Shown here piece by piece: positions 1-18,887 of a DNA stretch of 64,000 bases. Position 1 is the first letter of the stretch, and the number at the start of each line of letters is the position of its first letter. The stretch is taken from assembly GCA_003605065.1 (NCBI GenBank), contig QZJM01000049.1, positions 208-64,207 on the forward strand, read 5' to 3'. A program made the position numbers and the translations under genes. Below the pieces are notes generated by a model. It was not told the DNA's origin and made no database searches. It worked only from the letters and a program-made list of their open reading frames with translations. The stretch is from Dethiobacter sp. (lineage in GTDB: Bacteria > Bacillota > Dethiobacteria > DTU022 > UBA8154).

Positions 1-539
1 TATATCAACACCATAAGGTTCAAGTAAATCCAGTGCCGTAATAATATTCTCCTGATTTAACCCCCCCGCAAGAATAAGGGGGATAGTCCTTTTATAAAAA
101 GGCCTGGCCAGTCGCCAATTGAAAGTTTGACCTCCTCCACCCTTTTTATCTGTATATTTAGTATCCAGTAGAATAGCGCTAACAAGGTATTCCCGGCACC
201 TTTCTAGTGATAAAGAGGACGATGCCAAAAAAGTTTTGATAATTTTATATGTGGGAAACCGGCGGCAGTACTCCGCTGTCTCCTCGCCGTGAAACTGTAA
301 GGTATCCAGCCTGCAATAAGCAGCAATCTCTCTTACTTTTTCGTCTTCTTCGTTGACAAAAACGCCCACTTTCCCGATAAAAGGAGGCAGTTCCTTGATA
401 ATAGCTGCCGCTTTTTCAGGACTTATCCGGCGGGGACTGGCAGCAAAGACAAATCCCAGAGCATGAACGCCTTCTTCCACGGCTGCCAGAGCCTCCCGGG
501 GAGTAGTAATACCGCAGATCTTAACGCGTACAGGACACA
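1..539 (-). CDS. trpF: phosphoribosylanthranilate isomerase (TrpF), C-terminal part cut by window edge
   Basis: Minus-strand translation from the ATG at 539-537 (MCPVRVKICGITTPREALAAVEEG...) matches the PRAI N-terminus. It overlaps the trpC stop by 19 nt. It is absent from the ORF track because it runs off the window. Confidence 0.8.
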
Positions 540-1327
540 TCTTCCCCCAGCAGCTCCTTTATTTTGGCAACAGGATCGCTACTGCTCATAAGGCTATTAC
601 CAACAAGAATAGCATTCACTCCCAACTCTTTCAACTGCTTCACCTGCTCCCGGCAGTGAATACCGCTCTCCGAAATCAAAACCCTGTCGCGGGGAACATA
701 GGGACCCCATTCAAGAGTCCTCCTAAGATCAATCTCCATAGTATGGAGGTTACGGTTATTGATACCTATGATCTCCGCCCCCGCCTGTACCGCCCGAAGA
801 ATTTCTTCCTTTTTACCTACTTCTACTATGGCAGCCATTCCCAGCTCGTGGAGCAACTGCAAAAATCTTTTTAACTCCGTAAAAGCCAGTAGAGAGGCAA
901 TAAGCAGGACAGCATCTGCTCCCATGGCCCTGGATTCATAAATCTGGTACTCATCCACGATAAAATCCTTACGAAGGACAGGTATGCTTACAGCACTCTT
1001 AGCGCTCTTTAGATCTGCAGGACAGCCGGCAAAATATTTTGCCTCTGTTAACACAGATATGGCCGCTGCGCCGGCTTCCTGGTATAAAAGGGCGATTTCG
1101 GCCGGGCTTTTAACCTGTGCAAAATGAGACTCAATTACTCCGCAAGAGGGGGAGGCTTTTTTAATCTCCGCTATAATGCTTAGCTGCGGAAAACGCTTTT
1201 GAACTGCCTCTTTAAAGTTTCTTGCCGGAGAGATTAAAGGCAGCTGCTTGATTATTTCCTCCAGGGGATATTCTTTTTTCTGCCTGATAACTTCCCTCCA
1301 TTTATGAGCAGCTATCTCTTTAAGCAT
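521..1327 (-). CDS. trpC: indole-3-glycerol phosphate synthase
   Basis: 268 aa with the IAEIKKASPS, LRKDFI and INNRNL motifs typical of IGPS. Start overlaps the trpD stop. Confidence 0.9.
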   Translation of the reverse strand: MLKEIAAHKWREVIRQKKEYPLEEIIKQLPLISPARNFKEAVQKRFPQLSIIAEIKKASPSCGVIESHFAQVKSPAEIALLYQEAGAAAISVLTEAKYFAGCPADLKSAKSAVSIPVLRKDFIVDEYQIYESRAMGADAVLLIASLLAFTELKRFLQLLHELGMAAIVEVGKKEEILRAVQAGAEIIGINNRNLHTMEIDLRRTLEWGPYVPRDRVLISESGIHCREQVKQLKELGVNAILVGNSLMSSSDPVAKIKELLGEDVSCTR

Positions 1328-2375
1328 GAGCTCTTCCCCCTTCTATCCTCCTGGCAGATTCCCGCCGGTACGAGGAAAACTCCACCAGGGCCTGAAGTTT
1401 TTCATAAGCCGCTCCTGAATCAATAGATTTTTTTGCCAGCTCAATCCCTTCCCTGATACTTGAGGCCAGGCCGGAAACGTACACAGCCGCTCCCGCATTT
1501 AGTAAAACAACATCCCGGTATGGCCCTTTTTCCCCTTTCAGTACCGCCAAACAGGAATAAGTACCCGCTGCAGTATCCCCACCCTTCAGAGACCTCATCG
1601 AAACCCTGGAAAAACCAAAATCTTCCGGTGTAATAATATAGCTTTGTATGTTCCCGTTTTTCATTTCCGTTACTTTAGTCTCTGCCGTAAGTGTAATTTC
1701 GTCCAAGCCATCCCCACCGGCTACCACCAGGACATGTTCGGAGCCCGAAGAGGCCAGTACCGCAGCCATTTTTTCTGTTAACGCCGACTCGTAAATTCCC
1801 AGCAGCTGCCTTCTTGCTCCTGCCGGATTATTCAAGGGGCCCAGGAGATTAAAGATGGTCCGCACTCCCAGAGCTTTTCTTGCCGGGAGCGCATGGGCCA
1901 TAGCCGGGTGTAATAAAGGTGCGTACAAAAATCCCAGGCCGATTTCATTGAGACAATGCTCTAGATCTCCAGTAGACAATTCCAAATTTATGCCTAAAGC
2001 TTCACAGAGGTCTGCACTACCGCACTGCCCGGACACAGCCCTGTTTCCGTGCTTGGCCACCGTTATCCCGGCTCCGGCTGTAACAAAGGCGCTCACCGTA
2101 GAAATGTTAAAGCTCCCCTTGCCGTCTCCCCCTGTACCGCAGGTATCCACCAAAGGAGTCCTGGTAACGGAAATTTTAATGCTATGTTCGCGAATGGCCT
2201 GGCAGCTCCCCAGTATTTCATCTACGGCCTCACCTTTGCAACGAAGGGCGACAAGATAAGCAGCAACTTGAGCCTCTTTAAATTCACCTTTCATTACCTG
2301 TCTCATGACCTGGTAGGCCTCTTCACAAGTTAGATTTTCGTGATGTATCAACTTTTCCAGGAAATCTTTGATCAT
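1320..2375 (-). CDS. trpD: anthranilate phosphoribosyltransferase
   Basis: 351 aa with DTCGTGGDGKGSFNIST and AKHGNRAVSGQCGSADLCEALG motifs. Confidence 0.9.
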   Translation of the reverse strand: MIKDFLEKLIHHENLTCEEAYQVMRQVMKGEFKEAQVAAYLVALRCKGEAVDEILGSCQAIREHSIKISVTRTPLVDTCGTGGDGKGSFNISTVSAFVTAGAGITVAKHGNRAVSGQCGSADLCEALGINLELSTGDLEHCLNEIGLGFLYAPLLHPAMAHALPARKALGVRTIFNLLGPLNNPAGARRQLLGIYESALTEKMAAVLASSGSEHVLVVAGGDGLDEITLTAETKVTEMKNGNIQSYIITPEDFGFSRVSMRSLKGGDTAAGTYSCLAVLKGEKGPYRDVVLLNAGAAVYVSGLASSIREGIELAKKSIDSGAAYEKLQALVEFSSYRRESARRIEGGRAHA

Positions 2376-2378
2376 TTT

Positions 2379-3041
2379 TTAACCCGGGATTACTCCAGGG
2401 TGTTCACCTCCTGCAGAATGATTACGTTTAAAGGTTTCCCCTTTAATCTTTAAATTCTCTTCAGTGGTAATAAGGCCGGAAATCAGGCAAAAATTAGCCA
2501 GGATCATACGTCCCCGGGGAGTAAACAGGGACTCGGGGTGAAACTGCAACCCTATCAGATTGCGATAAAGTTTATGCCGGATAGCCATAATTTCCTCCTC
2601 CTCCGTGGCCGCGATAACTTCCAGAGAGGAAGGCAAGCCCCCGGCCAGGATAAGAGAATGATAGCGCATGGCCTCGAAAGGTGAATCTACCCCTTTAAAA
2701 ATGCTGTCCCCCTGATGGTAAACAAGAGAAGTTTTTCCATGCATAAGGTGAGAAGCTCTCACAACCCTGGCGCCAAAGTAAGCCCCGATAACCTGGTGTC
2801 CCAGGCATATACCCAAAATAGGAAGACGGTTTTTAAAAAAACCCACCGCTTTCAAGCTCAACCCGGCGGTGGAAGGCTCTCCCGGTCCCGGCGAGATAAC
2901 AACAGCCCGCAAAGGCATCTCTTCCAGCTCTTCCAGGTTAAAAGCATCATTGCGGCGAACATCCACGTCCAGCCCCATAGAACCCAGTTCTTGAGCCAGG
3001 TTAAAAGTAAAAGAATCGTAATTATCGATAATTAAAATCAT
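2379..3041 (-). CDS. trpG: anthranilate synthase component II (glutamine amidotransferase TrpG/PabA)
   Basis: 220 aa class-I GATase with ILGICLGHQ (Cys nucleophile). Overlaps the trpE end. Confidence 0.88.
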   Translation of the reverse strand: MILIIDNYDSFTFNLAQELGSMGLDVDVRRNDAFNLEELEEMPLRAVVISPGPGEPSTAGLSLKAVGFFKNRLPILGICLGHQVIGAYFGARVVRASHLMHGKTSLVYHQGDSIFKGVDSPFEAMRYHSLILAGGLPSSLEVIAATEEEEIMAIRHKLYRNLIGLQFHPESLFTPRGRMILANFCLISGLITTEENLKIKGETFKRNHSAGGEHPGVIPG

Positions 3042-4557
3042 TTTCCCACTCCTCGGCTAAGCTTATGGCCCGTAAAGAACTGGCCATTTTATGTTCTGTT
3101 TCTTCATACTCCCTGCAGGGGTCAGAATCAGCTACAATTCCTGCCCCGGCCTGAATAAAAGCCTGGCCGTGATCGAACAACAAAGTCCTTATCGTGATAC
3201 AGGTATCCATATCCCCGTTAAAGCCCACATAACCTACGGCCCCGGCATAGGGCCCCCGGGGAAGCGGTTCAAGTTCAGCGATAATTTCCATAGCTCTTAC
3301 CTTGGGCGCACCGGAGACCGTTCCCGCGGGAAAAACAGCACGTAAAAGATGGGTAAAATTGTATTCCGGACGGATTTTTCCCCTGACTTCGGAAACAAGG
3401 TGCATAACATGAGAAAAATATTCTATCTCCAGCAACTTGATTACTGCTACGCTGCCGTAACAACAGACTCTCCCCAGGTCATTTCTGCCCAGATCCACCA
3501 GCATCATATGCTCAGCCCTCTCTTTTTCATCTTTACTGAGCTCTGCAGCCAGGGAAAAATCTCTTTTTTCGTCCTGACCCCGCGGCCTGGTCCCGGCGAT
3601 AGGCTTAGTATAAGCCAGGCCCTTCTCAAGCCTTACCAGCATCTCCGGTGAAGAACCTATCATTTGAAAATGAGGAAAGAAAAGATAAAACTGGTAAGGT
3701 GAAGGGTTCAGGCTGCGCAGAGCGCGGTAAATATTAAACGGAAGGGCTGCCGTTTCCTGTTGCGCTTGCCTGGAGAGCACAACCTGGAATATCTCTCCTG
3801 CCCTTATATATTCCTTGGCCCTGTTAACCGCTGCTATAAAGCTAGCTTTGGTAAACGACCGTCTAACCCCCAGATCGGTGGAAAGGTCACTACAAGAAGC
3901 AACTTTCTCCAACGCATCCCCCTCCATACAACATTGATAACCTTGCCCTTGATTAACATTATTTAAAATATTTTCCAGCTCCTTGGAGGCCTTCTCATAA
4001 ATGTTCTCCAGATTATCTCTGTTGTTATTTATGGAGGCCACGTAAACAGCTGTTAAGAGATGCTTCTTGTGATCATAAATAAAAACTTTGCGGGGGAAAT
4101 AAAAATAGCACGAAGGCCACCTGCTTTCCTCCTCTATACCTGGCACTTTCTCCCACCGCTTAACCATATCATAAGAGAGATAGCCAACGGCTCCACCCCA
4201 GAAAACGGAAAGCTCCTCTGGTTGATAAACATGTAAGCTTTTAAAAATATTCTCTAAAACGTTCAGCGGGTCATCTCCCGAACGCCATCGTTCTCCATTC
4301 TCTTCCTGAACAACCGTGTCACTGCCCAGGGTATAAAGGGTTAAAAAGGGCTCGCTTCCGATAAATGAATACCTGGACTTTTCCCCCAGTTCCCCGCTTT
4401 CCAGCAAAAAGCTCTCCCTGCAATAGGAAGCCAGCTTGACATAGAGAGAAATAGGGGTCTCCAGGTCGGCCGGAACTGTTTTAAATACAGGTATGATATC
4501 ATAATCTTTGCCCAGCCGATTAAATGTTTCCCTATCCGGTTTAATCAATCGCCGCAC
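3022..4557 (-). CDS. trpE: anthranilate synthase component I
   Basis: 511 aa chorismate-binding enzyme (GTRPRG..., LVDLGRNDLGRV motifs). The track start is GTG at 4557. A better-spaced TTG at 4548 follows an AAGAGGTG RBS. Confidence 0.88.
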   Translation of the reverse strand: MRRLIKPDRETFNRLGKDYDIIPVFKTVPADLETPISLYVKLASYCRESFLLESGELGEKSRYSFIGSEPFLTLYTLGSDTVVQEENGERWRSGDDPLNVLENIFKSLHVYQPEELSVFWGGAVGYLSYDMVKRWEKVPGIEEESRWPSCYFYFPRKVFIYDHKKHLLTAVYVASINNNRDNLENIYEKASKELENILNNVNQGQGYQCCMEGDALEKVASCSDLSTDLGVRRSFTKASFIAAVNRAKEYIRAGEIFQVVLSRQAQQETAALPFNIYRALRSLNPSPYQFYLFFPHFQMIGSSPEMLVRLEKGLAYTKPIAGTRPRGQDEKRDFSLAAELSKDEKERAEHMMLVDLGRNDLGRVCCYGSVAVIKLLEIEYFSHVMHLVSEVRGKIRPEYNFTHLLRAVFPAGTVSGAPKVRAMEIIAELEPLPRGPYAGAVGYVGFNGDMDTCITIRTLLFDHGQAFIQAGAGIVADSDPCREYEETEHKMASSLRAISLAEEWENDFNYR

Positions 4558-4646
4558 CTCTTTTCCCAGCTATAATTTTAATTAAATAACCAGGCAAAAT
4601 AAATTGGGGAAATTAAATCTACCCCATTAAACAACCACTTCGGGTG

Positions 4647-5489
4647 CTAAGACTGGATATTCAATGGGAGAAAGCCCACACCGGAGTAAAAGTCAGAAAC
4701 CCGCAACCCGGAGTTCCACACTATCTTCTTTGTAAGAAATTCAAAAAGATAGGGATTGAGCACTTTAAGATAAGTACCCTTCCCCCCCAGCGAACGAGAT
4801 TCAATTACTCCGGCGCATTCAAGCTTCCGTAACGCGTTAGCTATTACCGAACCAGCTATACCCAGTTTTCTGGTTACGAGGATTCCTTCGTTATTACCAA
4901 GTTTTTCAAAAACATGTTCCACTGCCTCCCGCTCCGAACAAGAAAGCGTATCAAGTGCCAGTCTGAGAACTTCTTTATAGCGCATCTCTTTTTCAGTTTC
5001 CTCTACTTTTAAGCGCAGCATCTCCATGCCGGTAATAGCTGCCCCATTTTCAGCAAGAATTACGTCTTCAACCCCGAAAAGCCCGTCAAAGCGTACCAGA
5101 ATTACAGTGCCCAGCCGTTTACCACCGCCGATAATCGGAATTTCCGCAACAATTTTATCAGTATAAGGGCATGATTGCCCTTCAAGAAAAATACAGTCCT
5201 GAGGTTTTTGCTGCAGGTTAATTTTTAATTCATTGCTTTTTAGGAGATACTTGTTATATCCCTCCGGAAATCGCTCCTTTTGTACCAGGTTTATCATAAT
5301 TTTACATTTAAAATTGTCTACAAGGGCATACCCTTTAATTGATCCTTGAAGATCGGCAATATAAACACTGGCATGGATAACATTTTTAAGGACCCCGGCA
5401 ATATCTTTAAAACTGATATGCTGTCCTGCTGCTTCCTGAAGAATTTTGTTAATACAACGGATTTTCTTTAATAAGGAAGAAGTAATCAT
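4647..5489 (-). CDS. codY: CodY-family GAF + winged-HTH transcriptional regulator (paralog embedded in trp operon)
   Basis: The C-terminal region VILAENGAAITGMEMLRLK...EREAVEHVFEKLGNNEGILVTRKLGIAGSVIANALRKLECAGVIESRSLGGKGTYLKVLN aligns almost residue-for-residue with the B. subtilis CodY HTH domain, and the N-terminal GAF-like region (PIIGGGKRLGTVIL) also aligns. It carries a ~20 aa C-terminal extension. A 215-bp gap lies upstream. Confidence 0.8.
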   Translation of the reverse strand: MITSSLLKKIRCINKILQEAAGQHISFKDIAGVLKNVIHASVYIADLQGSIKGYALVDNFKCKIMINLVQKERFPEGYNKYLLKSNELKINLQQKPQDCIFLEGQSCPYTDKIVAEIPIIGGGKRLGTVILVRFDGLFGVEDVILAENGAAITGMEMLRLKVEETEKEMRYKEVLRLALDTLSCSEREAVEHVFEKLGNNEGILVTRKLGIAGSVIANALRKLECAGVIESRSLGGKGTYLKVLNPYLFEFLTKKIVWNSGLRVSDFYSGVGFLPLNIQS

Positions 5490-5704
5490 TTCTTTACCTT
5501 CTTTCTTTCACTTCTCATTTTTAAAAAAGGCGTAGGTTTTGCCAGCCGTCCCACATGAAATATAGGGCCGGAACTATGAGAAAAAGGGCACACCCAGTAA
5601 GAATGCCGTGACAAATAGTATTTCCTATGTGATTGCGAAATCCTACCCTGAAAGGCCGGTAAGGTATCCACCTGCGATTATTAGAACGCCTCCCGTTAGA
5701 TGGT

Positions 5705-6499
5705 TCACAGCAGGGTTCCGGTTTCCACTAGCGCCTTTTTTACAGAGCAAATAAATTCGAAAACAGCCGGTTTCCAGTCCTTTTCGCTGCCCATTAAATG
5801 GACAATACTGCTGCCGATGATCACGCCGTCTACACTAACTGCCACCTCTGCCGCCTGCTCCGGGGTAGAAATACCAAAACCCATACATAATGGTTTGGCT
5901 GATAATCTCCTGACTTTGGAAACTAACCTGTTTAATCCTAGGGGAAGGTTTTTTCTCATGCCGGTAATCCCTGTAACCGAAACAAGATAGATAAACCCCC
6001 GTGAACGTTGTGCTATCTCTTTAATGCGATGCTCAGGGCTGGTAGGAGCAATAAGAAAAATTAAGTCGAGGTTGTACCCTAAGGTGGCTTTTTCCAGAAG
6101 ACCGGCCTCATCTAAAGGTAAATCCGGAATAATCAATCCATCGATACCGGCACAGGAAGAGTCAGCGCAAAAAAGATCTAAACCATAGCGAAAAACGGGA
6201 TTATAGTAGGTCATAAAAAGTAGTGGAATATCCACTTTCTGCCTGATGAGGCGGGCAGTCTCCAGGCACTTAGCCGGAGTTATACCATTTTGCAGGGCCT
6301 TATAGCTGGCCTGCTGGATGGTTACCCCATCAGCCATCGGATCGGAGAAAGGAATGCCCAGTTCAACCACGTCTACGCCGCATTTCTCCAGCAAAGGCAC
6401 TGCCTCCAGGGTTGCCTCAACGGTAGGATAACCTACTGTAACAAAGGCAATAAGGGCAGCATGGTCCCGTCCGGCAAAAACAGAAGCAAGGCGTGTCAT
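5705..6499 (-). CDS. trpA: tryptophan synthase alpha chain
   Basis: 264 aa with [22 protein letters not shown] and GFGIS motifs. Overlaps the trpB stop. Confidence 0.92.
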
Positions 6500-7716
6500 G
6501 ACCCCACCTCCGGCATTTTACTAATAATGTCCATATCTTTATCTCCTCTTCCGGAAAGGTTAACGACAATAACCTGTTCCCGTTTTAGGGAACCGGCCAG
6601 CTTAAGGGCATGAGCGATGGCGTGAGCAGGTTCCAGGGCCGGTATGATTCCCTCTGTGCGGCTGAGCAAGTGAAAAGCCTCCAGAGCATAACGGTCCTCC
6701 ACGGCCACATATTGAGCACGACCGGTATCTTTAAGAAAACTGTGTTCCGGGCCCACACCGGGGTAATCCAGACCGGCCGAAATACTGTGAGTGGATAAAA
6801 TCTGGCCGTCCTCATCCTGCAGCAAAAAAGATTTCGCCCCCTGCAGCACCCCTACTTTTCCTGCAGTCAGAGAAGCGGCGTGTTTGTTACTCTCCAGACC
6901 CTGCCCCCCTGCTTCCACACCGATGAGCTTTACCTGTGGATCGTTTAGGAAAGGGTAAAAGATACCCATAGCGTTAGATCCACCTCCTACGCAGGCCAAT
7001 ACATAGTCAGGCAAAGCACCTCTCGCACCCAGAATTTGTTCCCTTGCCTCTCTCCCAATGACTGCCTGGAAATCGCGGACCATCAGGGGGTAGGGATGCG
7101 GCCCCACAACTGAGCCCAGCAGGTAGTAAGTGCTCTGTACATTGGTCACCCAGTCACGGAAAGCTTCATTAACGGCATCTTTAAGGGTCCTGGCCCCGCA
7201 TGTAACCGCTTTTACCTCCGCTCCCAAAAGCCTCATGCGAAAGACGTTGGGAGCCTGCCGGTGTACATCCTCTTCTCCCATATAAACAACACACTCTAAT
7301 CCCAGTAAGGCAGAGACGGCAGCAGCAGCAACACCGTGCTGGCCCGCCCCTGTTTCGGCAACCAGGCGTTTTTTTCCCAGCCTTTTGGCCAGCAGCCCCT
7401 GCCCCAAGGCGTTGTTGATCTTGTGCGCTCCCGTATGCAAAAGATCTTCCCGTTTCAGGTAAATGCAAGCACCTCCCTGTAGCTCGCTGAGTCGCTTTGC
7501 TTCATAAAGAGGAGTGGGACGCCCAGACCAGTGCCTTGATAAATGGTAAAATTCCTCCTGAAAGGCCGGATCCTCCCTGGCCCCGCAGTACGCTTCGGTA
7601 AGCTCTTCCAGGGCAGGGATCAACACTTCGGGGACAAACCGCCCTCCAAATTCTCCATAATAACCACGTTCATCCGGCATCATGTCCATTTCAATCCCCC
7701 TTTTACTGCACGACAA
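6496..7716 (-). CDS. trpB: tryptophan synthase beta chain
   Basis: 406 aa with [17 protein letters not shown] (PLP lysine) and GGGSNAMG motifs. Confidence 0.93.
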
Positions 7717-7719
7717 ACT

Positions 7720-11103: not shown

Positions 11104-11553
11104 TTACTCTTCATCTATCTCACAAAGAGCTCGTAAAGCCAAAAAATAGCTCTGCGGCCCGAAGCCGCTTATCTGGCCCCGTACAACAGGGGCAATAACA
11201 GAGCGGCGGCGAAACTCCTCCCTGGCGTAGATATTGGAAAGATGTACCTCCACAGCAGGAATGTTAACCCCTGCCAGGGCATCCCGCAGGGCGATACTAT
11301 AATGGGTAAAAGCCCCGGGATTAATAATAATTCCCTGATTTTTTCCAACCGCCCCGTGAATATGATCCAGCAAATCACCTTCACTGTTAGATTGATAACA
11401 TTCCAATTTTACCCCCAGCCTCTCTGCTTCCGTATGGAGCAAACCGTTCAGTTCTTCCAGGCTCAAATTACCGTAAATCTCTATCTCTCTGCTGCCCAGC
11501 AAGTTGAGGTTTGGTCCATGAAGCACCAAAAAGCTTTTCTTTCCACTGTCCAT
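11104..11553 (-). CDS. aroQ: 3-dehydroquinate dehydratase type II
   Basis: 149 aa with [12 protein letters not shown]...[10 protein letters not shown]. Confidence 0.9.
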
Positions 11554-11602
11554 CCAGACACCCCTTTTTATAAATTTACTATTATGCCCCTCCTGCAGTT
11601 CA

Positions 11603-12208: not shown

Positions 12209-13103
12209 CCGGTTTATAACCTATTTTAAAAGCATTTTGGAGAGCTTCTTTCATGATGCGCAATGGCGCTTCTTCCCCGGTAAAAATTTCAAACGCTTTT
12301 ACCCCCTGCCCCAGAAGCATATCCAGCCCATTCAATGCCAGAATACCGTTATTCTCAGCCCATTTCCCAAATGGGGCCAGCGGGGTGCTGTACCGCAGGT
12401 CAATTGCCGCCTTACATCCCCGCAAGTTTTGCTGGGGTAAAAACCCGAGTTCAACCGGATCTTCGCTCAGGGCATTTATGATCAAAGTTGAGCTTTCAAT
12501 GCTCTCCCGCAGAGAGTTTTTATCCAGTTTTACAATACTTACCTTCCCATCCTCAAAAATACCACCCCGGATTAAAAGAGAGGCCAGTCCTTCAGCCCTG
12601 GCAATGGTGCGGTTGGCAACAACCAGAGACTTAACCCCTGCTTTGGCCAGGGCCAGGGAAACAGCCCCGGCAGCCCCTCCTGCCCCCAGCAGGAAGGCAT
12701 CCTCCAACGGAAAGACGTTTCCAAGGTTGTTTTGCAGCAGGTAAAGGAAGCCGTCAACATCGGTGTTATAACCTACCAGCTTGCCTTCCTCATTTTCAAT
12801 GGTATTGACAGCCTTTAAAAATCCGGCCTCCGGAGAAAGCTCGTCTAAATATGGGACTACAGCTTCCTTATGCGGGGCCGTTACGTTCACACCCCTTAAC
12901 CCCAGGGAAGCTATGGCTCTGACCGCAGCCGGTAAATCATCTTTGCGCACGCGGAAAGGCAGGTAGCAAAAATTCAACTCTCTTTCCCTGAAGGCGGCAT
13001 TATGCATGGCAGGAGAAAAAGAGTGACTGACGGGATCCCCGAAAAGACCCACCACTTTTGTTTCACCGTTAATAACCATCCTCTTTCCGTTCTCTGAAAA
13101 CAA
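12186..13103 (-). CDS. aroE: shikimate 5-dehydrogenase
   Basis: 305 aa with VTAPHK, NTDVDGF and GAGGAAGAV Rossmann motifs. Confidence 0.88.
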   Translation of the reverse strand: MFSENGKRMVINGETKVVGLFGDPVSHSFSPAMHNAAFRERELNFCYLPFRVRKDDLPAAVRAIASLGLRGVNVTAPHKEAVVPYLDELSPEAGFLKAVNTIENEEGKLVGYNTDVDGFLYLLQNNLGNVFPLEDAFLLGAGGAAGAVSLALAKAGVKSLVVANRTIARAEGLASLLIRGGIFEDGKVSIVKLDKNSLRESIESSTLIINALSEDPVELGFLPQQNLRGCKAAIDLRYSTPLAPFGKWAENNGILALNGLDMLLGQGVKAFEIFTGEEAPLRIMKEALQNAFKIGYKPVEKFFAG

Positions 13104-13120
13104 TTTTTTTACACCTTTCT

Positions 13121-14245
13121 TTATAAGAGATCCCCTCGCAGGTATTCTTCAATAACCTGTTCCATAAGGGAGAAAGGGGGTGCTTTATACATCAGTACCC
13201 TGCCTGGAGCAGTAGGAAGTACAAAAACTAATTCCCCTCCCTCTTTCTTTTTATCATAGAATAAGGCTTCAGCGACAGTATCCTTGTTCAACCCCTGCGG
13301 GGGGAAAGGAGTCTTCAGCTGCTTAAGGAGAGTTTTAATCCTCCGTTCAGAAGCCGGGTCCAATATGTTTAACAATACCGCCAGCCTGGCTGCCATGGCC
13401 ATCCCGCATGCCACCGCTTCTCCGTGAAGGTAGTAGGCATAGCCGGTTGCTGCTTCCAGGGCATGGCCAAAAGTATGTCCAAAATTTAAGACGCGGCGTA
13501 AGTTTTTTTCCCTCTCATCCCGGCAGACTATTTCCCCCTTAATGAGGACAGCCCGGGCAATAAACTTTAAAAGCCAGGGATTGTCAATTTCGAGGAGCAG
13601 GCCCCGGGGAGAGGCCCTCCGGCTGAGGGATTTCAGGGATTCCAACCGCTCAAAAAGCTTTTTATCCCAAATAACCCCGTATTTTACCAGCTCGGCTAAC
13701 CCGGCGTTAAATTCCCGCTCCGGTAAAGTGTTAAGGGTATCTACATCGCTGATAACCAGCGACGGCTGGTAAAAAGCACCGATAAGGTTTTTCCCCAGGG
13801 GGTGGTTTACGGCTACTTTGCCTCCAATACTGCTGTCCACCATGGCCAGCAGCGTTGTAGGCACCTGGACATAGGGAACACCCCTTAAATAAGTAGCGGC
13901 TACAAATCCTGCCAGGTCGCCTGTCACTCCCCCGCCCAGAGCTACAATAGCTGCATGTCTGTCCAGGCCTGCTTCAAGTGCCCGCGTGTAAAGGGTTGAA
14001 GCTGCTGTTAAAGATTTATCTTTCTCTCCCCCCTCCAGCACTTCCAGGTAAGGTTTAAAACCTGCACGCCGCAGGCTCTCCAGGCATCTTTCGCCATAAT
14101 AAAGCGAAACATTCCTGTCGCTTACCACCAGGATGGAGCAGGCTGGCAGATACGCAGAGATAACGGAACCAATACTATCGATCATACCCCGGCCCAAATA
14201 GACTGGATAGGCTTTTTGGTCTGTTTTTATTTTAATTTTGAACAT
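13121..14245 (-). CDS. aroB: 3-dehydroquinate synthase
   Basis: 374 aa with GGGVTGDLAGFVAATYLRGV, the metal-binding HxxxH region and GHTFGHA. Confidence 0.9.
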   Translation of the reverse strand: MFKIKIKTDQKAYPVYLGRGMIDSIGSVISAYLPACSILVVSDRNVSLYYGERCLESLRRAGFKPYLEVLEGGEKDKSLTAASTLYTRALEAGLDRHAAIVALGGGVTGDLAGFVAATYLRGVPYVQVPTTLLAMVDSSIGGKVAVNHPLGKNLIGAFYQPSLVISDVDTLNTLPEREFNAGLAELVKYGVIWDKKLFERLESLKSLSRRASPRGLLLEIDNPWLLKFIARAVLIKGEIVCRDEREKNLRRVLNFGHTFGHALEAATGYAYYLHGEAVACGMAMAARLAVLLNILDPASERRIKTLLKQLKTPFPPQGLNKDTVAEALFYDKKKEGGELVFVLPTAPGRVLMYKAPPFSLMEQVIEEYLRGDLL

Positions 14246-15448
14246 CTACATTTCCCCTATATCTTGTATACCTTTATTTCCCCCCAGGTAACGTTTAGCC
14301 AACTCCATGTAGTTATGCCAAGCCATCTCCACTTCGGCCATCGAGTCTCCGGAAAATTTTTCCATAAAGGCCTTCGCTATCTCCCAGGCAACTACAGCTT
14401 CTCCGACAACTGAGGCGGCAGGAACAGCACAAATATCCGAGCGTTCTACAGCAGCGTCCTTTATCTTCCCGGTAGCCAGATCTATACTGGGCAGGGCCTT
14501 CTTTAAGGTAGGTATGGGCTTCATGGCCGCTCTTAAAATAACAGCCTGCCCGTTGGTTATACCTCCTTCAAGCCCTCCGGCATGGTTCGCAGACCTGGAA
14601 ATTTTGTTATGATCATCTAATACGATGGCATCGTGTACCAGTGATCCGGGTCTTCCGGCAGCACTAAAGCCCAAGCCTATCTCCACGCCTTTTATGCCGG
14701 GAATACTCATTAACGCCCCGGCCAGCCGTCCATCCAGGCGCCTGTCCCAGTGGACGTGGCTCCCGATCCCCGGAGGAAGCCCTTCAACCAGGACCTCAAA
14801 AACCCCTCCCAGGGTATCTCCCCTCTTCCTGGCCTGGTCGATCTTTTCCCGCATCAACTGCTCCGCTTCTCCGTCAAGACAGTAGAAAAGAGAGTTAGCC
14901 GTCTTTTCTTTGATAACACTTGCCCTTAATTCCGACCCTCGTGGAGAAGCCGAGACATCCCCCACGGCAACAACAAAACCGGCACTTATAATATGAAAAT
15001 GAGCCAGCAATAAAGAGGCGATACTGCCGACAGCCACGCGCATAGCCGTCTCCCTGGCGCTGGCGCGCTCCAGCACATTACGAAGATCGCGGTGGAAATA
15101 TTTTATCCCGCCGGCCAGGTCCGCATGCCCCGGCCGAGGGCTAGTCACCTTTCTTTCACCTGTTTCATCCAGCGGGTCTGGTGACATCACCTTTTGCCAG
15201 TTCAACCAATCCTTGTTTTCAATTAACAGGGCCAGAGGGCTACCCGTTGTTTTTCCAAAACGAACACCGGAGAGGATTTTAATGCGGTCTTTTTCTATAG
15301 ACATACGTCCTCCCCGGCCGTAGCCTCCCTGGCGCCTGACCAGCTGCTGGTTAATATAATCTTCTTTTATGGTCAAACCTGCCGGCAGTCCTTCAATAAT
15401 ACCCACCAGCGCGGGACCGTGAGACTCACCTGCTGATAAATAACGCAT
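14246..15448 (-). CDS. aroC: chorismate synthase
   Basis: The track ORF runs to 15646 (466 aa). The canonical start MRYLSAGESHGPAL is the ATG at 15448, giving 400 aa. Confidence 0.88.
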   Translation of the reverse strand: MRYLSAGESHGPALVGIIEGLPAGLTIKEDYINQQLVRRQGGYGRGGRMSIEKDRIKILSGVRFGKTTGSPLALLIENKDWLNWQKVMSPDPLDETGERKVTSPRPGHADLAGGIKYFHRDLRNVLERASARETAMRVAVGSIASLLLAHFHIISAGFVVAVGDVSASPRGSELRASVIKEKTANSLFYCLDGEAEQLMREKIDQARKRGDTLGGVFEVLVEGLPPGIGSHVHWDRRLDGRLAGALMSIPGIKGVEIGLGFSAAGRPGSLVHDAIVLDDHNKISRSANHAGGLEGGITNGQAVILRAAMKPIPTLKKALPSIDLATGKIKDAAVERSDICAVPAASVVGEAVVAWEIAKAFMEKFSGDSMAEVEMAWHNYMELAKRYLGGNKGIQDIGEM

Positions 15449-15647
15449 TCCCAAGCAGGCAGGACCTTTTAACGTTTCCCAGACAATCGCTAAAACTCCT
15501 GCCGTTCCCCCCTTTACTGTGTCTACTTTACAAAATGCTTCTTTAACAAGGCCCTCCCTGGATATGCAATGCTGCTTAGCAGGGCAACCTGGTTTAGAGC
15601 TTTCCGCGAAAACCACAGGAGCCCATGCCACAGCAGCCCAAATCAAG

Positions 15648-16934
15648 TTAAGCAGTTAGATTTTGTAAAAGTTCAAAAAAACCGGGAAAAGAAACCTGGA
15701 CAGGTTCAATTTCCTGGATGACCGTTTCGCCCCGTGCAAAAAGTGCAGCAACAGCCAGCGCCATCGCGATGCGGTGGTCACCATGACTTGAGCAACAGGA
15801 ACCTTTTATCCTGACCTTTCCCTTTATGATTAAACCATCGGGAAGCTCCTTAATAACCGCCCCCATTTTTCTCAGCTCCAGGGTTAAAGCGCTTAGGCGA
15901 TCAGTTTCCTTAAAACGCAATTCGCCTGCACCTTTGATAACCGTTTCACCTTCAGCAAAAAGGGCGGCAACAGCTATAACAGGTATTTCGTCTACCAGGC
16001 GCGGGATGATTTTGGAGTTAATCTCTATCCCTTTTAAGGAAGCACCGCTTTTAATGAAAAGGTCGGCTACCGGCTCAAAATTATATTCTCTTTTATTTAA
16101 AATTTTTACACCAGCCCCCATTTCTTCCAGCACATCAAGTATTCCAGTTCTGGTAGGGTTAATGCCTACTTCTTCAATTAAAAGTTCCCCTCTTGGAGCC
16201 AGTGCCGCCGCTACCAGAAAAAAGGAGGCTGATGATATATCCCCGGGTATTTGAATCCTCCTGGCTTTTAATTTAAAGGGAGTTTCAAGGATAACCCGTT
16301 CTTTTTCCCTCTTCATTCCGCTGCCCAGATAGCAGAGCATTCTCTCCGTATGATCCCTGGAACAAACTGGTTCAATTATTTCTGTCGTACCGCTGGTGTA
16401 CAGCGCAGCCAACAGAAGGGCTGATTTTACCTGGGCGCTGGCTACCGGCAAAGTATAGCGGATAGGGGTCAAGTCCCCGCCCCTTACATACAGCGGTAAG
16501 AGGGTACTGTTGTGGCGCCCATCGAGATAAGCTCCCATCTTTTTCAAAGGCTCAGTTACTCTTCCCATAGGTCTATTTCTTAAAGATGTATCTCCTGTTA
16601 AAGTTGAAAAAAATGGTTGCCCGGCCAGTACCCCCAGGAGAAGACGGGCGGTAGTACCAGAATTTTCCGCATTCAGAACATCCTCCGGTTCTCTCAAGCC
16701 CCGTAAACCCTTCCCCTTTACCTTCAACCTGTTCCAATCACCATAAAATTCAACACCTAATCCCTGCAGGCATTTATATGTACTCAGCGGATCTCCTGCC
16801 TCCAGAAGACCCTCCAGCTCCACTGTCCCTTCTACAAGGGAAGAGAGTATCAATGCCCTGTGGGAAATGGATTTATCACCCGGCACCCTGGTCTGGCCTA
16901 GCAGTTGTTCCCTGGGTTCTACAGTTATGTCCAT
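15648..16934 (-). CDS. aroA: 3-phosphoshikimate 1-carboxyvinyltransferase (EPSP synthase)
   Basis: 428 aa with LPGDKSISHR and the EPSPS fold repeats. Confidence 0.9.
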   Translation of the reverse strand: MDITVEPREQLLGQTRVPGDKSISHRALILSSLVEGTVELEGLLEAGDPLSTYKCLQGLGVEFYGDWNRLKVKGKGLRGLREPEDVLNAENSGTTARLLLGVLAGQPFFSTLTGDTSLRNRPMGRVTEPLKKMGAYLDGRHNSTLLPLYVRGGDLTPIRYTLPVASAQVKSALLLAALYTSGTTEIIEPVCSRDHTERMLCYLGSGMKREKERVILETPFKLKARRIQIPGDISSASFFLVAAALAPRGELLIEEVGINPTRTGILDVLEEMGAGVKILNKREYNFEPVADLFIKSGASLKGIEINSKIIPRLVDEIPVIAVAALFAEGETVIKGAGELRFKETDRLSALTLELRKMGAVIKELPDGLIIKGKVRIKGSCCSSHGDHRIAMALAVAALFARGETVIQEIEPVQVSFPGFFELLQNLTA

Positions 16935-16993
16935 TTTTTCATCCTTCCTTTTTCTATCCCCGTACCAGGCTTTTGGGGGTCCTTATCCCAATT

Positions 16994-17866
16994 TTACTGA
17001 AGAGAGCGTCTTACAAACCCGGCCTTTGTTAGTGTTTTTATCGTTTCTTTTTCATCCCCTTTTTCCAAATAACCATGCAGTAAATTTAATTCTTCCAGAA
17101 AAATTTTCAGAGAATCCCTTAAAAAAATTTTATTGGTAGCGAAAATATCATACCACATCGAAGGCTCCCCCATGGCAATACGAGTAGTATCTCTAAACCC
17201 TTTACCGGCAAGGGTAAAAAGCAGTTCATGTTCCTGGCCACAATTTCTTAAAGTATTAACGAGAGCAACAGCGACCATCTGGGGAAGGTGGCTGACCAGA
17301 GCTATCAACCTGTCATGTTCTTCCGGTTCCATTATAAAAGGGTGGGCTCTGATAGCACGGATAGTATCCTGCAGTTTTTCCAGCTTTGTGTTCGATGTAT
17401 GCCGTGTGGGAGTTAATAAATAAACGGCATTTTCCAGCAGGAAGGGATTTGCCGCGGTAACTCCAGCCTGTTCTGAACCGGCCATAGGATGACCGCCTAC
17501 GCCCGTTACTCCTGGAGGTAACACAATTTCCATGGTCTCAACGATCTTTTGCTTCGTACTCCCCACATCAGTTACCAGTGCGCCCTTTTGCAGAGAGGAG
17601 GAAATTTCCCCCAGCACTTTTACGATCTGGCTCACAGGCATGGAAAGGATGACCAGTTCAGCATCCTCTAGGGCTTGTGACAAGTCTGCTGTTTTATCTA
17701 CTGCTCCTCTCTCCCTGGCCTCTACCATGGCCCGGGCATTAACATCGTGTCCCCAGCGCTCCTCCACAACTTTATACTTTCCCAGAGCCATACCCACCGA
17801 GCCTCCGATAAGACCCAGCCCTATAATACAGCATTTTTTAAATAACGGCTTACAGGGTACGGCCAA
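16994..17866 (-). CDS. tyrA: prephenate dehydrogenase
   Basis: 290 aa with IIGLGLIGGS (NAD-binding) and the PDH core. Overlaps aroF by 17 nt. Confidence 0.85.
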   Translation of the reverse strand: MAVPCKPLFKKCCIIGLGLIGGSVGMALGKYKVVEERWGHDVNARAMVEARERGAVDKTADLSQALEDAELVILSMPVSQIVKVLGEISSSLQKGALVTDVGSTKQKIVETMEIVLPPGVTGVGGHPMAGSEQAGVTAANPFLLENAVYLLTPTRHTSNTKLEKLQDTIRAIRAHPFIMEPEEHDRLIALVSHLPQMVAVALVNTLRNCGQEHELLFTLAGKGFRDTTRIAMGEPSMWYDIFATNKIFLRDSLKIFLEELNLLHGYLEKGDEKETIKTLTKAGFVRRSLQ

Positions 17867-18887
17867 CTGTCTGTGCCACTCCTCTCAATGAACTAATCAT
17901 CTGTGAAAACTTTTCCGGAATTAGCGATTGGGGACCATCACAAAGTGCCTCTTTCGGCGCAGTATGTACCTCTACCAGCAGGCCGTCAGCACCGGCTGCC
18001 ACTGCAGCCAGGCTCATGGAAGGAACCCATTTCCACTTCCCGGTACCATGGCTGGGGTCGACAAATACCGGCAAATGGCTTAACTCTTTTACGATGGGAA
18101 CAGCACTGATATCCAGCGTATTACGGGTATATGTTGTTTCAAAAGTTCGTATTCCTCTTTCACAGAGAATGACCCGCTGGTTTCCACTGCTAAGAAGATA
18201 CTCTGCCGCCATTAACCATTCTTCAATAGTCGCTGACATCCCTCTCTTGATTAAAACAGGTTTATTTAGCTGCCCCAGTTCTGTAAGCAGCTTAAAATTT
18301 TGCATATTGCGTGCACCCACCTGGATTATATCGGCATAGCGGGCAACAATTTCCACGGAGTGCTGGTCCAGCACTTCTGTTATGATGGGAAGACCGGTTA
18401 TATCCCTGGCCTCGGCCATAATTTTCAAACCTTCTTCTTCCAGGCCTTGAAAGCTGTACGGAGAAGTGCGCGGCTTATATGCCCCCCCTCTTAAAATATC
18501 CGCCCCCCCTTTTTTTACAGCTTCAGCGACTTGAAGATATGATTCCCTTCCCTCAACGGCACACGGCCCGGCTACCAGGACTACTTTCCCACCGCCGATT
18601 TCAACTCCTCCAACTTTGAAAGCGGTCTTTTCCTTCTTGAACTCCCTGCTTACCAGCATGAAAGAGGGTGAAACAAGTATTACTCTTTCTACGGAAGACA
18701 TGGCCTCCAAAGCCTCTTTAACATCTTCCCGGGGGGAGCCGATGGCCCCCAGGATAGTACTGTTCTCGCCGGTGGAACGGTGTATACCATAGCCGAAACT
18801 CCTAATCCTCTTCTCTACCTCCTGAATTTCCTCTTCATCGGCACCTGAATCCATAATAACAATCATAAAAAATCCTCCTCTTAACAA
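17850..18887 (-). CDS. aroF: 3-deoxy-7-phosphoheptulonate (DAHP) synthase, type I-beta with N-terminal regulatory domain
   Basis: 345 aa with an N-terminal ferredoxin-like/ACT-like domain plus the KDO8PS-like TIM barrel (GPCAVE, LIKRG, DPSH), like Thermotoga/Bacillus AroA(G). Confidence 0.85.
   Translation of the reverse strand: MLRGGFFMIVIMDSGADEEEIQEVEKRIRSFGYGIHRSTGENSTILGAIGSPREDVKEALEAMSSVERVILVSPSFMLVSREFKKEKTAFKVGGVEIGGGKVVLVAGPCAVEGRESYLQVAEAVKKGGADILRGGAYKPRTSPYSFQGLEEEGLKIMAEARDITGLPIITEVLDQHSVEIVARYADIIQVGARNMQNFKLLTELGQLNKPVLIKRGMSATIEEWLMAAEYLLSSGNQRVILCERGIRTFETTYTRNTLDISAVPIVKELSHLPVFVDPSHGTGKWKWVPSMSLAAVAAGADGLLVEVHTAPKEALCDGPQSLIPEKFSQMISSLRGVAQTVGRTL

Follow-up and report, generated by a model that had tools for sequence, protein, structure and literature searches.

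Aromatic amino acid genes form a co-directional supercluster in an uncultured Dethiobacter-like bacterium (Bacillota), located within a 64,000-nt stretch of contig DNA that is referred to here as the window. The genes follow one another on a single strand, specify enzymes for tyrosine, phenylalanine precursors and tryptophan, and follow the order aroF-tyrA-aroA-aroC-aroB-aroE-aroK-aroQ-aroH, a Trp (UGG) T-box, trpD'-C'-F'-B-A, a diverged codY and trpE-G-D-C-F. With a probability of roughly 0.6, we read this cluster as at least two T-box-controlled transcription units arranged head to tail, with read-through between them.

Gene content and two trp sets

A co-directional aro and trp supercluster with an internal Trp T-box had been proposed in a first-pass annotation and was confirmed by ORF listing, NCBIfam/Pfam and Rfam scans. 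On the minus strand of positions 1-18887, ORF listing and NCBIfam/Pfam scans yield 20 close-packed protein genes instead of the 21 claimed; a conserved 55-codon leader ORF (see below) would count as the 21st ORF. The aro block comprises nine genes and is conserved in two relatives (loci L137 and L141):

17850-18866, minus: aroF, DAHP synthase (NF006421, 500 bits; Pfam DAHP_synth_1 and DAHP_snth_FXD), with an N-terminal ferredoxin-like regulatory domain (FXD)
16994-17866, minus: tyrA, prephenate dehydrogenase (Pfam PDH_N and PDH_C pass; NCBIfam prephenate dehydrogenase models E=1e-77, under their equivalog cut-offs); 17-nt overlap with aroF
15648-16934, minus: aroA, EPSP synthase (TIGR01356, 410 bits)
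14246-15448, minus: aroC, chorismate synthase (start ATG 15448)
13121-14245, minus: aroB, 3-dehydroquinate synthase (TIGR01357, 363 bits; zero gap to aroC)
12186-13079, minus: aroE, shikimate dehydrogenase (TIGR00507, 228 bits)
11603-12181, minus: aroK, shikimate kinase (NF010553, 171 bits, E=2e-50, under the 204-bit cut-off; Pfam SKI)
11104-11553, minus: aroQ, type II dehydroquinase (TIGR01088, 203 bits)
10640-11029, minus: aroH, monofunctional chorismate mutase (TIGR01796, 141 bits)

A 66-codon N-terminal extension of the aroC ORF was rejected: it has no homology support, the profiles begin at residue 67, and aroC relatives start at the same MRYL as ATG 15448.

The ten trp genes previously listed are indeed present. 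They do not form a single pathway set, however, but two partly redundant ones, in which trpD, trpC and trpF occur twice each:

9078-10169, minus: trpD', anthranilate phosphoribosyltransferase (TIGR01245, 360 bits)
8390-9085, minus: trpC', divergent indole-3-glycerol-phosphate synthase (under all NCBIfam cut-offs)
7720-8388, minus: trpF', divergent phosphoribosylanthranilate isomerase (Pfam PRAI, 72 bits; under NCBIfam cut-offs)
6496-7689, minus: trpB (TIGR00263, 630 bits)
5705-6499, minus: trpA (TIGR00262, 271 bits); ATG overlaps the trpB stop
4647-5489, minus: codY', strongly diverged CodY paralogue (NF003170, 276 bits; cut-off 255)
3022-4548, minus: trpE (TTG start, as in relative L140)
2379-3041, minus: trpG (NCBIfam/Pfam scans)
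1320-2375, minus: trpD, canonical (TIGR01245, 412 bits; GTGGD and KHGNR)
521-1327, minus: trpC, canonical (NF001377, 306 bits; cut-off 260)
1-540, minus: trpF, canonical, cut by the window start

TrpD' belongs to a distinct subfamily that carries GTGGG for GTGGD and KHGSR for KHGNR, motifs that are invariant in the alignment made (A1), and it shares 41% identity with the second TrpD. TrpC' is N-terminally short and covers only positions 51-248 of the 254 in the Pfam IGPS profile. On a JGI contig, the truncated trpF encodes 212 aa, and that contig ends 108 nt beyond it without trpBA. Before trpE, a weak promoter (TTGCCT-17-TATAGC, read from the sequence) is possible.

Most intergenic distances are 0-60 nt or overlaps, in line with the tight packing first described. 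Larger gaps lie between aroA and aroC (199 nt with the homology-supported aroC start, matching the roughly 200 bp reported), aroH and trpD' (470 nt), trpA and codY' (215 nt), and codY' and trpE (about 90-98 nt). The 470-nt gap is occupied by a predicted promoter, a T-box and the leader ORF. From the aroH stop to the T-box, the distance is only 45 nt, where more than 100 bp had been claimed. Look-ups of CodY and TrpC listed three contigs each with the protein, further places being collapsed as similar, and TrpD' has entries from JGI, NCBI and Logan, which makes misassembly unlikely. Judged by comparison with other relatives, in which the modules are found separately, the junctions of the cluster are lineage-specific joins.

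Leaders upstream of aroF and pheA

The control regions in front of the cluster had been overlooked in the first reading, which reported neither the promoter, the Phe Stem I fragment (partial match at 19328-19513) and the complete Tyr T-box (match at 18990-19327) that precede aroF nor the plus-strand T-box ahead of pheA (19671-19968):

19542-19570, minus: predicted promoter P1 of the aro unit (TTGACA, 17 nt, TAAAAT; TG ahead of the -10)
19328-19513, minus: partial T-box, UUC (Phe) specifier (Rfam T-box match, 46 bits, E=1e-8)
18972-19327, minus: complete Tyr T-box leader (Rfam T-box match 18990-19327, 115 bits; gathering score 93)
19624-20904, plus: divergent pheA unit (promoter, Phe T-box, terminator, pheA)
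19624-19653, plus: predicted pheA promoter (TTGACA-18-TAATAT)
19671-19968, plus: Phe (UUC) T-box (91.8 bits, just below the gathering score of 93; bulge UGGU)
19952-19977, plus: terminator of the pheA T-box
20053-20904, plus: pheA (PDT and ACT domains)

P1 agrees with the consensus at 11 of 12 positions and outranks all other promoter-like sites in the region, and its hexamers are kept in relative L137. The specifiers of all four T-box elements were taken from the model alignments. The Tyr T-box displays the specifier GAA-A-UAC-A and the bulge UGGU; its terminator hairpin (18978-19006; 13 pairs, -17 kcal/mol) is followed by a U run. In bacterial tRNAs, a UGGU bulge as in the Tyr and Phe elements fits an A73 discriminator, while UGGC as in a Trp element fits G73.

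The partial element comprises Stem I plus a Stem II-like region; the T-box sequence, antiterminator and terminator are all absent. The element might therefore be the functionless remnant of a decayed tandem T-box, as the missing antiterminator would suggest, and its minimum-free-energy fold is no better than those of shuffled sequences (z = -0.73). Against such decay, the element is also present in L137 (35 bits), where its Stem I is as well conserved as the full T-box (two sequences only), base changes on both sides keep the pairing (by eye, in a two-sequence alignment), and its spacing is unchanged, whereas the neighboring region past the terminator is full of indels. Possibly, the partial T-box contributes Phe sensing at the front of the cluster.

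The aroH/trp junction and codY'

As first described, a Trp-specific T-box lies exactly at the aro/trp junction on the same strand:

10615-10643, minus: putative internal promoter P2 (TTGACA, 10643-10638; 17 nt; TATAAA, 10620-10615; read from the sequence)
10307-10594, minus: Trp T-box leader (Rfam T-box match 10325-10594, 108 bits; gathering score 93)
10117-10284, minus: leader ORF of 55 codons (Shine-Dalgarno AAAGGAGG, peptide MFLFLNKWAWPARACK...)

The T-box shows the specifier GAA-UGG-A (model alignment), the bulge UGGC and a terminator (10313-10340; -17.9 kcal/mol) followed by U6. UGG is kept in 14 of 17 related leaders checked, and two of the remaining three are cut off upstream.

P2 bears on the claim of a single transcription unit, according to which one transcript of about 19.5 kb would start at one promoter ahead of the cluster, with the Trp T-box acting purely as an internal attenuator and P2 being non-functional. 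The shared strand, the short or overlapping junctions and the lack of a terminator between aroH and the T-box in a hairpin-plus-U-run scan would all suit such a transcript, as would the imperfect -10 box of P2 (TATAAA, without the usual final T). Yet the -35 box of P2, TTGACA, contains the aroH TGA stop, and L137 and L140 retain the junction of aroH, P2 and Trp T-box, the hexamers being identical in the window, L137 and L140 despite differing spacers. Moreover, all orthologous Trp T-boxes examined have a TTGACA box with an A/T-rich -10 upstream at constant distance, including those of stand-alone T-box-trpD'C'F'BA operons, which have no aro genes upstream and in which it must be the promoter. 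Together with the conserved hairpin and U7 in aroA (see below), this leaves the single unit unsupported and renders its simple version quite unlikely.

Between the Trp T-box and trpD', the Trp codons of the leader ORF are located in the 5' arm of a hairpin (GGCCC-GCAA-GGGCC). In the +1 frame, the ORF continues past both the ribosome-binding site and the ATG of trpD' and stops 53 nt inside this gene. Like the partial Phe T-box, it could be functionless debris, here a chance ORF. However, among 15 T-box-trpD' loci, 11 have the ORF with a W-x-W-P motif, which is absent from all of about 90 trpD' loci that lack a T-box, and in seven loci the reading frame remains uninterrupted across spacers that cannot be aligned. 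The ORF is conserved and confined to loci with T-box and trpD', conservation of the peptide being inseparable from that of the hairpin, and it may have a role.

The third candidate for debris is codY', in this case as a decaying gene copy. Its product falls under the TIGR02787 cut-off; the helix-turn-helix has lost 4 residues and carries substitutions, and the C-terminus bears a 20-residue tail. Many changes affect otherwise invariant positions: 36 unique deviations occur at columns identical in nine other CodYs, which themselves show 0-5. Close relatives were not found; the nearest homologues (63% identity) are located in the usual hslVU-codY context. Rfam gave no matches around codY'. Nevertheless, the codY' reading frame is intact over 280 codons and has a ribosome-binding site. 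Considering all three elements, we regard functionless debris as unlikely. CodY' may have a function, and codY' and trpEGDCF are probably co-transcribed with the upstream trp genes.

Two proposed units and the Bacillus supraoperon

Within positions 1-19700, the hairpin-plus-U-run scan returned the two T-box terminators, a hairpin at the end of aroA and, beyond these, no more than weak candidates:

15675-15717, minus: hairpin (15682-15717) and U7 (15675-15681) within the last 25 codons of aroA
5528-5568, minus: weak hairpin and U6 in the trpA-codY' gap (-9 kcal/mol)

The aroA-end hairpin (-13 kcal/mol) and its T7 run are kept in L137 and L141 with two compensatory pairs. This candidate partial terminator or pause site may divide the aro block, and aroC-aroH could then need a putative promoter of their own in the 199-nt gap. 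Likewise, the trpA-codY' hairpin could end some transcripts.

Conceivably, the locus could be a series of short, independent operons (aroF-tyrA-aroA; aroC to aroH; T-box-trpD'C'F'BA; codY'; trpEGDCF) with little read-through from one to the next, their clustering reflecting rearrangement history and not co-transcription. The separate modules in relatives, the conserved aroA-end hairpin, the long gaps ahead of aroC, codY' and trpE, the hairpin with U6 and the possible weak promoter before trpE all point this way. Arguing to the contrary, the gaps aroA-aroC, trpA-codY' and codY'-trpE yielded no convincing promoter, and the scan detected no stable terminator after aroH, trpA or codY'. In addition, trpE, encoding the committed step, would be left without Trp-specific control. 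In L140, trpE follows trpA after 48 nt under one T-box with it; in the window, transcription would have to pass through codY' for trpE to come under Trp control. We consider such a fragmentation unlikely.

In the preferred arrangement of at least two units, P1 would drive a leader composed of the Stem-I-only Phe module and the complete Tyr T-box. Uncharged tRNA-Tyr would pair with UAC via its anticodon and with the UGGU bulge via its ACCA end, thereby stabilizing the antiterminator, so that RNA polymerase could enter aroF-tyrA-aroA and continue through aroC-aroB-aroE-aroK-aroQ-aroH, with part of the transcription possibly stopping at the aroA-end hairpin. Feedback at the enzyme level would be expected from AroF through its FXD domain and from PheA through its ACT domain. 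P2 would drive the second unit through the Trp T-box, whose UGGC bulge would match the G73 discriminator of tRNA-Trp. Past this element, ribosomes may translate the Trp-codon leader ORF running over the trpD' start, followed by trpD'C'F'BA, codY' and trpEGDCF. Since no terminator was detected between aroH and the Trp T-box, read-through from aro into trp is plausible, and polymerases from the first unit would also meet the Trp checkpoint. Trp starvation alone would not induce the common pathway, an odd design that counts against this model.

The likeness to the aro supraoperon of Bacillus that had been drawn is apt. In both the present cluster and that of Bacillus subtilis, an upstream promoter and an internal trp promoter (here predicted) are combined with Trp-specific attenuation at the junction. 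Here, however, a T-box takes the place of TRAP, and Tyr, possibly also Phe, would be sensed at the front. The cluster is a fuller form of an arrangement already known from Bacillus.

Gene content and relatives of the cluster

All open reading frames listed for the cluster (1-18887) lie on the minus strand, and 20 protein genes were identified among them with NCBIfam and Pfam. The co-directional aro-trp cluster proposed by the first-pass annotation is thus borne out, with 20 protein genes instead of the 21 counted there. All seven shikimate steps are represented; aroF encodes a DAHP synthase whose N-terminus carries an FXD regulatory domain, aroQ a type II dehydroquinase and aroH a chorismate mutase. 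The trp part comprises a first, divergent set of copies (trpD', trpC' and trpF'), a canonical second set (trpD, trpC and trpF) and an embedded codY paralogue (codY'). Taking the best-supported start codons, neighbouring genes mostly overlap or lie less than 60 nt apart.

Gene order, larger gaps and neighbours
Aro part, minus strand, in order (NCBIfam/Pfam): aroF, tyrA, aroA, aroC, aroB, aroE, aroK, aroQ, aroH
Trp part, minus strand, in order (NCBIfam/Pfam): trpD', trpC', trpF', trpB, trpA, CodY-like gene, trpE, trpG, trpD, trpC, 5' part of trpF
Larger gaps: aroA-aroC, 199 nt; aroH-trpD', 470 nt; trpA-codY, 215 nt; codY-trpE, about 90-98 nt
Neighbours, 21113-28203 (minus strand) and 29438-33679 (plus strand): thiC; nadC-nadB-nadA with a NiaR-like regulator (HTH_11 and 3H domains); glgB, glgC and glgD

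A long form of AroC (466 aa) was rejected, as its N-terminal extension stems from an open upstream frame and homology begins only at residue 67. On the JGI contig, trpF is followed by the contig end 108 nt further on, with no more trp genes. Misassembly was likewise rejected, given that look-ups of CodY and TrpC each returned three contigs with similar neighbouring genes; entries for the cluster proteins come from JGI, NCBI and Logan. Upstream of thiC, no TPP riboswitch was found at the Rfam gathering score.

The nine-gene aro block recurs in two related loci, L137 (AroH 84% identical) and L141 (NCBI label "Dethiobacteria bacterium"). In L137, aroH is followed by an internal promoter (P2), a Trp T-box and trpF as the sole trp gene, which looks like deletion of the rest, while in the related locus L140 it is followed by P2, a Trp T-box and trpB-A-E-G-D-C-F, with neither trpD'C'F' nor codY. 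Nothing related follows aroH in L141, and no T-box is detectable before its aro block (1-1076). The module of T-box, leader and trpD'C'F'BA in turn occurs by itself in a Dethiobacter alkaliphilus MAG (L064) as well as in L057, L058, L066, L070, L061 and L063. The Rfam gathering threshold missed the T-boxes before several stand-alone trpD' cassettes, some of which were recovered by motif. Among the relatives compared, codY is located inside the cluster in the lineage of the window only. This variation shows the supercluster to be a string of modules joined in a lineage-specific manner.

One related contig (L058 and L138) carries the same genes in shuffled order, with genes for FmdE, a full SBP_bac_5 protein and an ABC transporter between aroQ and aroH (L138, 3215-5767). 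The window encodes FmdE and a truncated, 154-aa remnant of SBP_bac_5 upstream of thiC (22886-23997, minus strand), an arrangement that looks like the footprint of the rearrangement that joined the aro genes.

Further observations concern the surroundings of these loci. In L137, the stretch from the aroH stop to the promoter of the Trp T-box contains three direct repeats, each about 13 nt long (cataacagctcac; 10357-10440). The aro block of L141 begins 60 nt after a gene for a beta-eliminating lyase of the tryptophanase / tyrosine phenol-lyase family. Two unrelated metagenome contigs (L040, 219-10464; L041, 10001-20180) show the interleaved order trpD-trpC-x-trpF-aroE-aroC-aroK-aroB-aroQ-trpB-trpA-aroF.

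RNA leaders, promoters and the aro/trp junction

Regulatory features of the cluster and of divergent pheA
19570-19542, minus strand: P1, promoter of the aro genes
19328-19513, minus strand: partial T-box with UUC (Phe) specifier
18990-19327, minus strand: complete Tyr T-box upstream of aroF
15675-15717, minus strand: hairpin element at the end of aroA
10643-10615, minus strand: P2, internal promoter at the aroH/Trp T-box junction
10325-10594, minus strand: Trp T-box between aroH and trpD'
10117-10284, minus strand: leader ORF between the Trp T-box terminator and trpD'
19624-19653, plus strand: strong promoter, back to back with the likewise strong P1
19671-19968, plus strand: pheA leader T-box, full-length match of 91.8 bits (gathering score 93; E=2e-20), with UUC specifier, T-box sequence GGGUGGUACCGCG and terminator
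20053-20904, plus strand: pheA, divergent, with its own promoter and Phe (UUC) T-box

With 115.1 bits, the Tyr T-box exceeds the gathering score of 93 (Rfam RF00230, model positions 1-219); it displays the specifier loop GAA-A-UAC-A. In the covariance-model match, its Stem I comprises the GA/K-turn, the AGUA...GAA specifier loop, the AG bulge and the distal loop, followed by Stem II/IIA-B, Stem III and the T-box sequence. A 13-pair hairpin (19006-18978) followed by UUUUUU forms the predicted terminator, which would compete with the antiterminator.

Directly abutting the 5' side of this element, a permissive Rfam scan (18800-20200) revealed the partial T-box, which matches with 46 bits and consists of Stem I and a Stem II-like region. 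In the Rfam alignment, the model positions for Stem III and antiterminator are deleted, and the element, which lacks the T-box sequence as well as antiterminator and terminator, is a Stem I module of a T-box rather than a complete T-box. The module is kept in L137 (1508-1624) with unchanged spacing, and the leaders of both loci align without indels across the partial element and linker, with many indels after the terminator. By eye, the two-sequence alignment contains two-sided base changes that keep Stem I pairs, e.g. U-A to C-G. Moreover, the partial Stem I is similar to Stem I of the pheA T-box in the window and to the Phe T-box of L058. Its minimum-free-energy fold (z = -0.73) is uninformative for Stem I architecture. 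In all three of these Phe elements, the base after the UUC specifier is C and not the usual purine.

The T-box bulge of the Trp element reads UGGC, that of the Tyr and Phe elements UGGU. UGGU agrees with an A73 discriminator and UGGC with the G73 that bacterial tRNA-Trp carries; no tRNA gene for comparison with the bulge bases was found in the window. Conceivably, the Stem-I-only Phe module would capture tRNA-Phe and the complete Tyr T-box tRNA-Tyr. Since both tRNAs would present A73-CCA, compatible with a single UGGU bulge, either one in its uncharged form could stabilize one shared antiterminator, and the common pathway would be switched on under starvation for Phe or Tyr. Such an OR gate appears unlikely. 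It is rather improbable, too, that this two-input leader and the Trp T-box with its leader ORF form a layered sensor that reads all three aromatic tRNA pools by RNA alone. Partially tandem T-boxes as such are known, and their mode of action is acknowledged as open (PMC7583486).

The last 25 codons of aroA contain a hairpin (15682-15717, about -13 kcal/mol) with a run of seven U behind it. Hairpin and T7 run are kept in L137 (about 5483-5533) and L141 (about 4183-4233) with two compensatory pairs, and the element is conserved at the nucleotide level in all three genomes, in which the Phe-Phe codons are always TTT TTT. The same three loci also have a gap of 155-300 nt with a large hairpin just before the aroC start; no recognizable promoter was found in the aroA-aroC gap. 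The region of the aroA-end hairpin is the best candidate for a partial termination or processing site within the aro block. The long-range hairpin upstream of aroC (window 15449-15500, minus strand; L137 5650-5711; L141 4480-4554), with GGCAGGA...UCCUGCC in the window, is better kept in structure than in sequence.

At the aro/trp junction, the Trp T-box is a full covariance-model match (108 bits, Rfam gathering threshold) with the specifier GAA-UGG-A, which is shared by 14 of 17 related leaders checked. The TGA stop codon of aroH is part of the TTGACA box of P2, followed after 17 nt by TATAAA. L137 and L140 share the junction of aroH and Trp T-box, and the P2 hexamers are identical in both, with a different spacer. 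In all loci examined, a TTGACA box is located at the same distance before the orthologous Trp T-box, including stand-alone T-box-trpD'C'F'BA operons without upstream aro genes. Because the same box must serve as promoter in these operons, P2 of the window is very probably active.

The first-pass annotation had envisaged a single transcription unit, and this notion stands in part. A scan for hairpins with U-runs detected no terminator after aroH, and polymerases from upstream should therefore also enter the Trp T-box; the only stable intergenic structures of this kind are the two T-box terminators. Yet, the conserved P2 at the junction speaks against one unit, and an aro unit under the Tyr T-box may rather lie head to tail with a trp unit under P2 and the Trp T-box, with read-through possible.

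The Trp T-box terminator is directly followed by a strong Shine-Dalgarno sequence and the leader ORF, which starts with the ATG at 10284, encodes MFLFLNKWAWPARACK... and whose Trp codons form the 5' arm of a hairpin GGCCC-N4-GGGCC. Leader ORF and W-x-W-P-x-[R/G]-A motif are present in 11 of 15 loci with a Trp T-box before trpD' (window, L011, L014/L063, L015, L016, L027, L057, L058, L064, L066 and L070) and in none of about 90 trpD' loci without T-box. In seven loci, no stop interrupts the frame in the AT-rich, non-alignable spacer, for which the chance is 0.04-0.12 per locus, and the ORF crosses the ribosome-binding site and ATG of trpD', always in the +1 frame; in an eighth locus, the ORF ends 3 nt before the trpD' ATG. 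The peptide matches no Pfam or NCBIfam family. We infer that the leader is translated and coupled to trpD' initiation. After the Trp T-box checkpoint, ribosomes would read the W-x-W-P leader ORF across the trpD' start, and stalling at its Trp codons could then free an occluded trpD' start or shield the 5' end of the mRNA. In L027 (173-2546), inserted genes of about 2 kb in total keep the Trp T-box and a first leader ORF apart from trpD', which is directly preceded by a second copy of the ORF. Our literature search, outside the main surveys, found no report of a T-box paired with a trp leader peptide, and a prior description of this layout is possible.

Duplicated trp genes and the embedded CodY paralogue

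Features of the trp part
9078-10169, minus strand: trpD', first gene after the leader ORF
4647-5489, minus strand: codY', inside the trp cluster

TrpD' shares only 41% identity with the canonical TrpD of the same cluster, though it belongs to the same fold family (TIGR01245, 360 bits). Its signature motifs are GTGGG and KHGSR, not GTGGD and KHGN(R), and both are invariant in the alignment of its subfamily, which occurs in records from many phyla; the closest solved enzyme retains GTGGD and KHGN. The structures listed for TrpD' include PDB 3gbr, which we take to be the Sulfolobus TrpD mutant D83G, in which this substitution is tolerated. TrpD' is likely to have enzyme activity. TrpC' is missing the N-terminal 50 profile positions of IGPS (Pfam). 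The trpD'-trpC-trpF triad was found in records labelled Bacillota, Actinobacteria and Deltaproteobacteria and in one archaeon (loci L057-L136); it often adjoins trpBA and is sometimes located beside a canonical trpEGDC set (e.g. L092). The prime genes probably encode active isoenzymes of a foreign lineage. Some deltaproteobacterial TrpD' proteins are fused to an AsnC-type ligand-binding domain (PF01037; e.g. the proteins P0206 and P0216).

CodY' features both Pfam domains, i.e. the GAF-like domain and the CodY helix-turn-helix, and scores above the cut-off of NF003170 (276 bits; 255) and below that of TIGR02787 (250.5; 267.2). It is the sole deviant at 36 alignment columns in which nine other CodYs, distant Natranaerobius proteins included, are identical, as opposed to 0-5 columns for each of these nine. 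Its helix-turn-helix shows a 4-residue deletion and the substitutions T212A, R213G and V217A, and the protein ends in a 20-residue C-terminal tail. While the genes of its nearest homologues (63% identity) are found in the usual context xerC-hslV-hslU-codY, codY' is not. Apart from an identical copy, a search of 5.8 billion proteins returned no close relative, and a genome scan with the CodY protein matched none, its patterns being too specific. CodY' may be either a neofunctionalized, pathway-linked regulator or a decaying copy. A literature search outside the main surveys found no paper on codY in a trp operon.

A search for CodY boxes (AATTTTCWGAAAATT, up to three mismatches) gave two matches versus 5.8 expected, none of them in a regulatory gap, and a permissive Rfam scan around codY (4400-5800) gave no RNA family. 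An AT-rich, partly palindromic motif, TTATTTAATTWWAAWTTA, occurs just downstream of P1 (19515-19532, minus strand) and before trpE (4572-4589, minus strand). The copy at P1 sits in a 10-nt insertion that is missing from L137, whose cluster has no codY. As a weak lead, this motif could be a putative CodY' operator, on the understanding that the pattern was derived from the same two sites that it then matched and is thus circular.

Consensus promoter scans revealed no convincing promoter in the aroA-aroC, trpA-codY or codY-trpE gaps. In L140, trpE follows trpA after 48 nt, under the Trp T-box; given this arrangement, Trp-specific control of trpE in the window most simply needs transcription through codY'.

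Overall reading and comparison with known systems

Taken together, the locus is a fuller combination of the known aro/trp supraoperon and T-box control, in which all three aromatic amino acids have a T-box within 20 kb. The parallel with the Bacillus supraoperon drawn in the first pass is apt. A complete pathway from DAHP to tyrosine precursors and to tryptophan can be built stepwise from independent T-box operons in one co-directional array, and the relatives found represent snapshots of its assembly and decay. The aro leader provides a natural, conserved partially tandem T-box with different specifiers (Phe, then Tyr) that bears on the open question of how such elements act (PMC7583486). If regulatory, a leader ORF with Trp codons behind a T-box would unite two classic attenuation devices in a new way. 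The CodY-derived protein in the trp operon hints at how a global regulator, which as CodY senses GTP and branched-chain amino acids, can be recruited to one pathway.

The supraoperon of Bacillus subtilis (aroF-aroB-aroH-trpEDCFBA-hisC-tyrA-aroE) has an internal trp promoter, TRAP attenuation and read-through from an upstream promoter. Its trp operon is inserted into an aro operon (PMC1173090). Similarly, aro genes including aroH directly precede trp on one strand in the window, with no terminator between them and with an internal trp promoter and a Trp-specific attenuator predicted from sequence at the junction, which is kept in L137 and L140. In contrast to B. subtilis, a T-box sensing tRNA-Trp takes the place of the TRAP protein; all seven shikimate genes, tyrA and aroH are placed before the junction, with the front under the Tyr T-box; and the trp part has a permuted gene order, two copies each of trpD, trpC and trpF, and a codY paralogue in its midst. 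In Desulfovibrio vulgaris and Nostoc/Anabaena, what looks like a single operon joins aro genes, tyrA and pheA to trp, with redundant trp copies in some cases (PMC1173090). The genes involved and their orders differ from those of the window, T-boxes are not described there, and D. vulgaris uses the alternative aroA'/aroB' route, unlike the window.

Regarding T-box control, trp operons of Bacillota carry single and tandem Trp T-boxes before trpEGDCFBA (PMC12452182, PMC2494555). As in Lactococcus lactis and, in tandem form, many other species, a T-box with UGG specifier and an intrinsic terminator precede trp in the window. Here, however, the Trp-codon leader ORF takes the place of a second T-box behind the single one, regulation begins with trpD' and not with trpE, and the element lies within a larger cluster. 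In the Bacillus cereus group, a T-box sensing tRNA-Tyr is found upstream of shikimate-to-tyrosine genes (PMC2494555), whereas the Tyr T-box of the window precedes the whole common pathway together with tyrA and aroH and is itself preceded by a Phe-specifier Stem I without its own expression platform. The latter arrangement resembles partially tandem T-boxes, in which a Stem I without its own antiterminator and terminator lies directly 5' of a complete T-box, though the two modules of the window have different specifiers, Phe and Tyr. Finally, the leader ORF is reminiscent of E. coli trpL, likewise a short ORF with clustered Trp codons upstream of trp and an RNA hairpin at these codons. Unlike trpL, it matches no Pfam or NCBIfam leader family and has no conserved terminator after it, while it is located downstream of a T-box terminator and runs over the start codon of the first structural gene.
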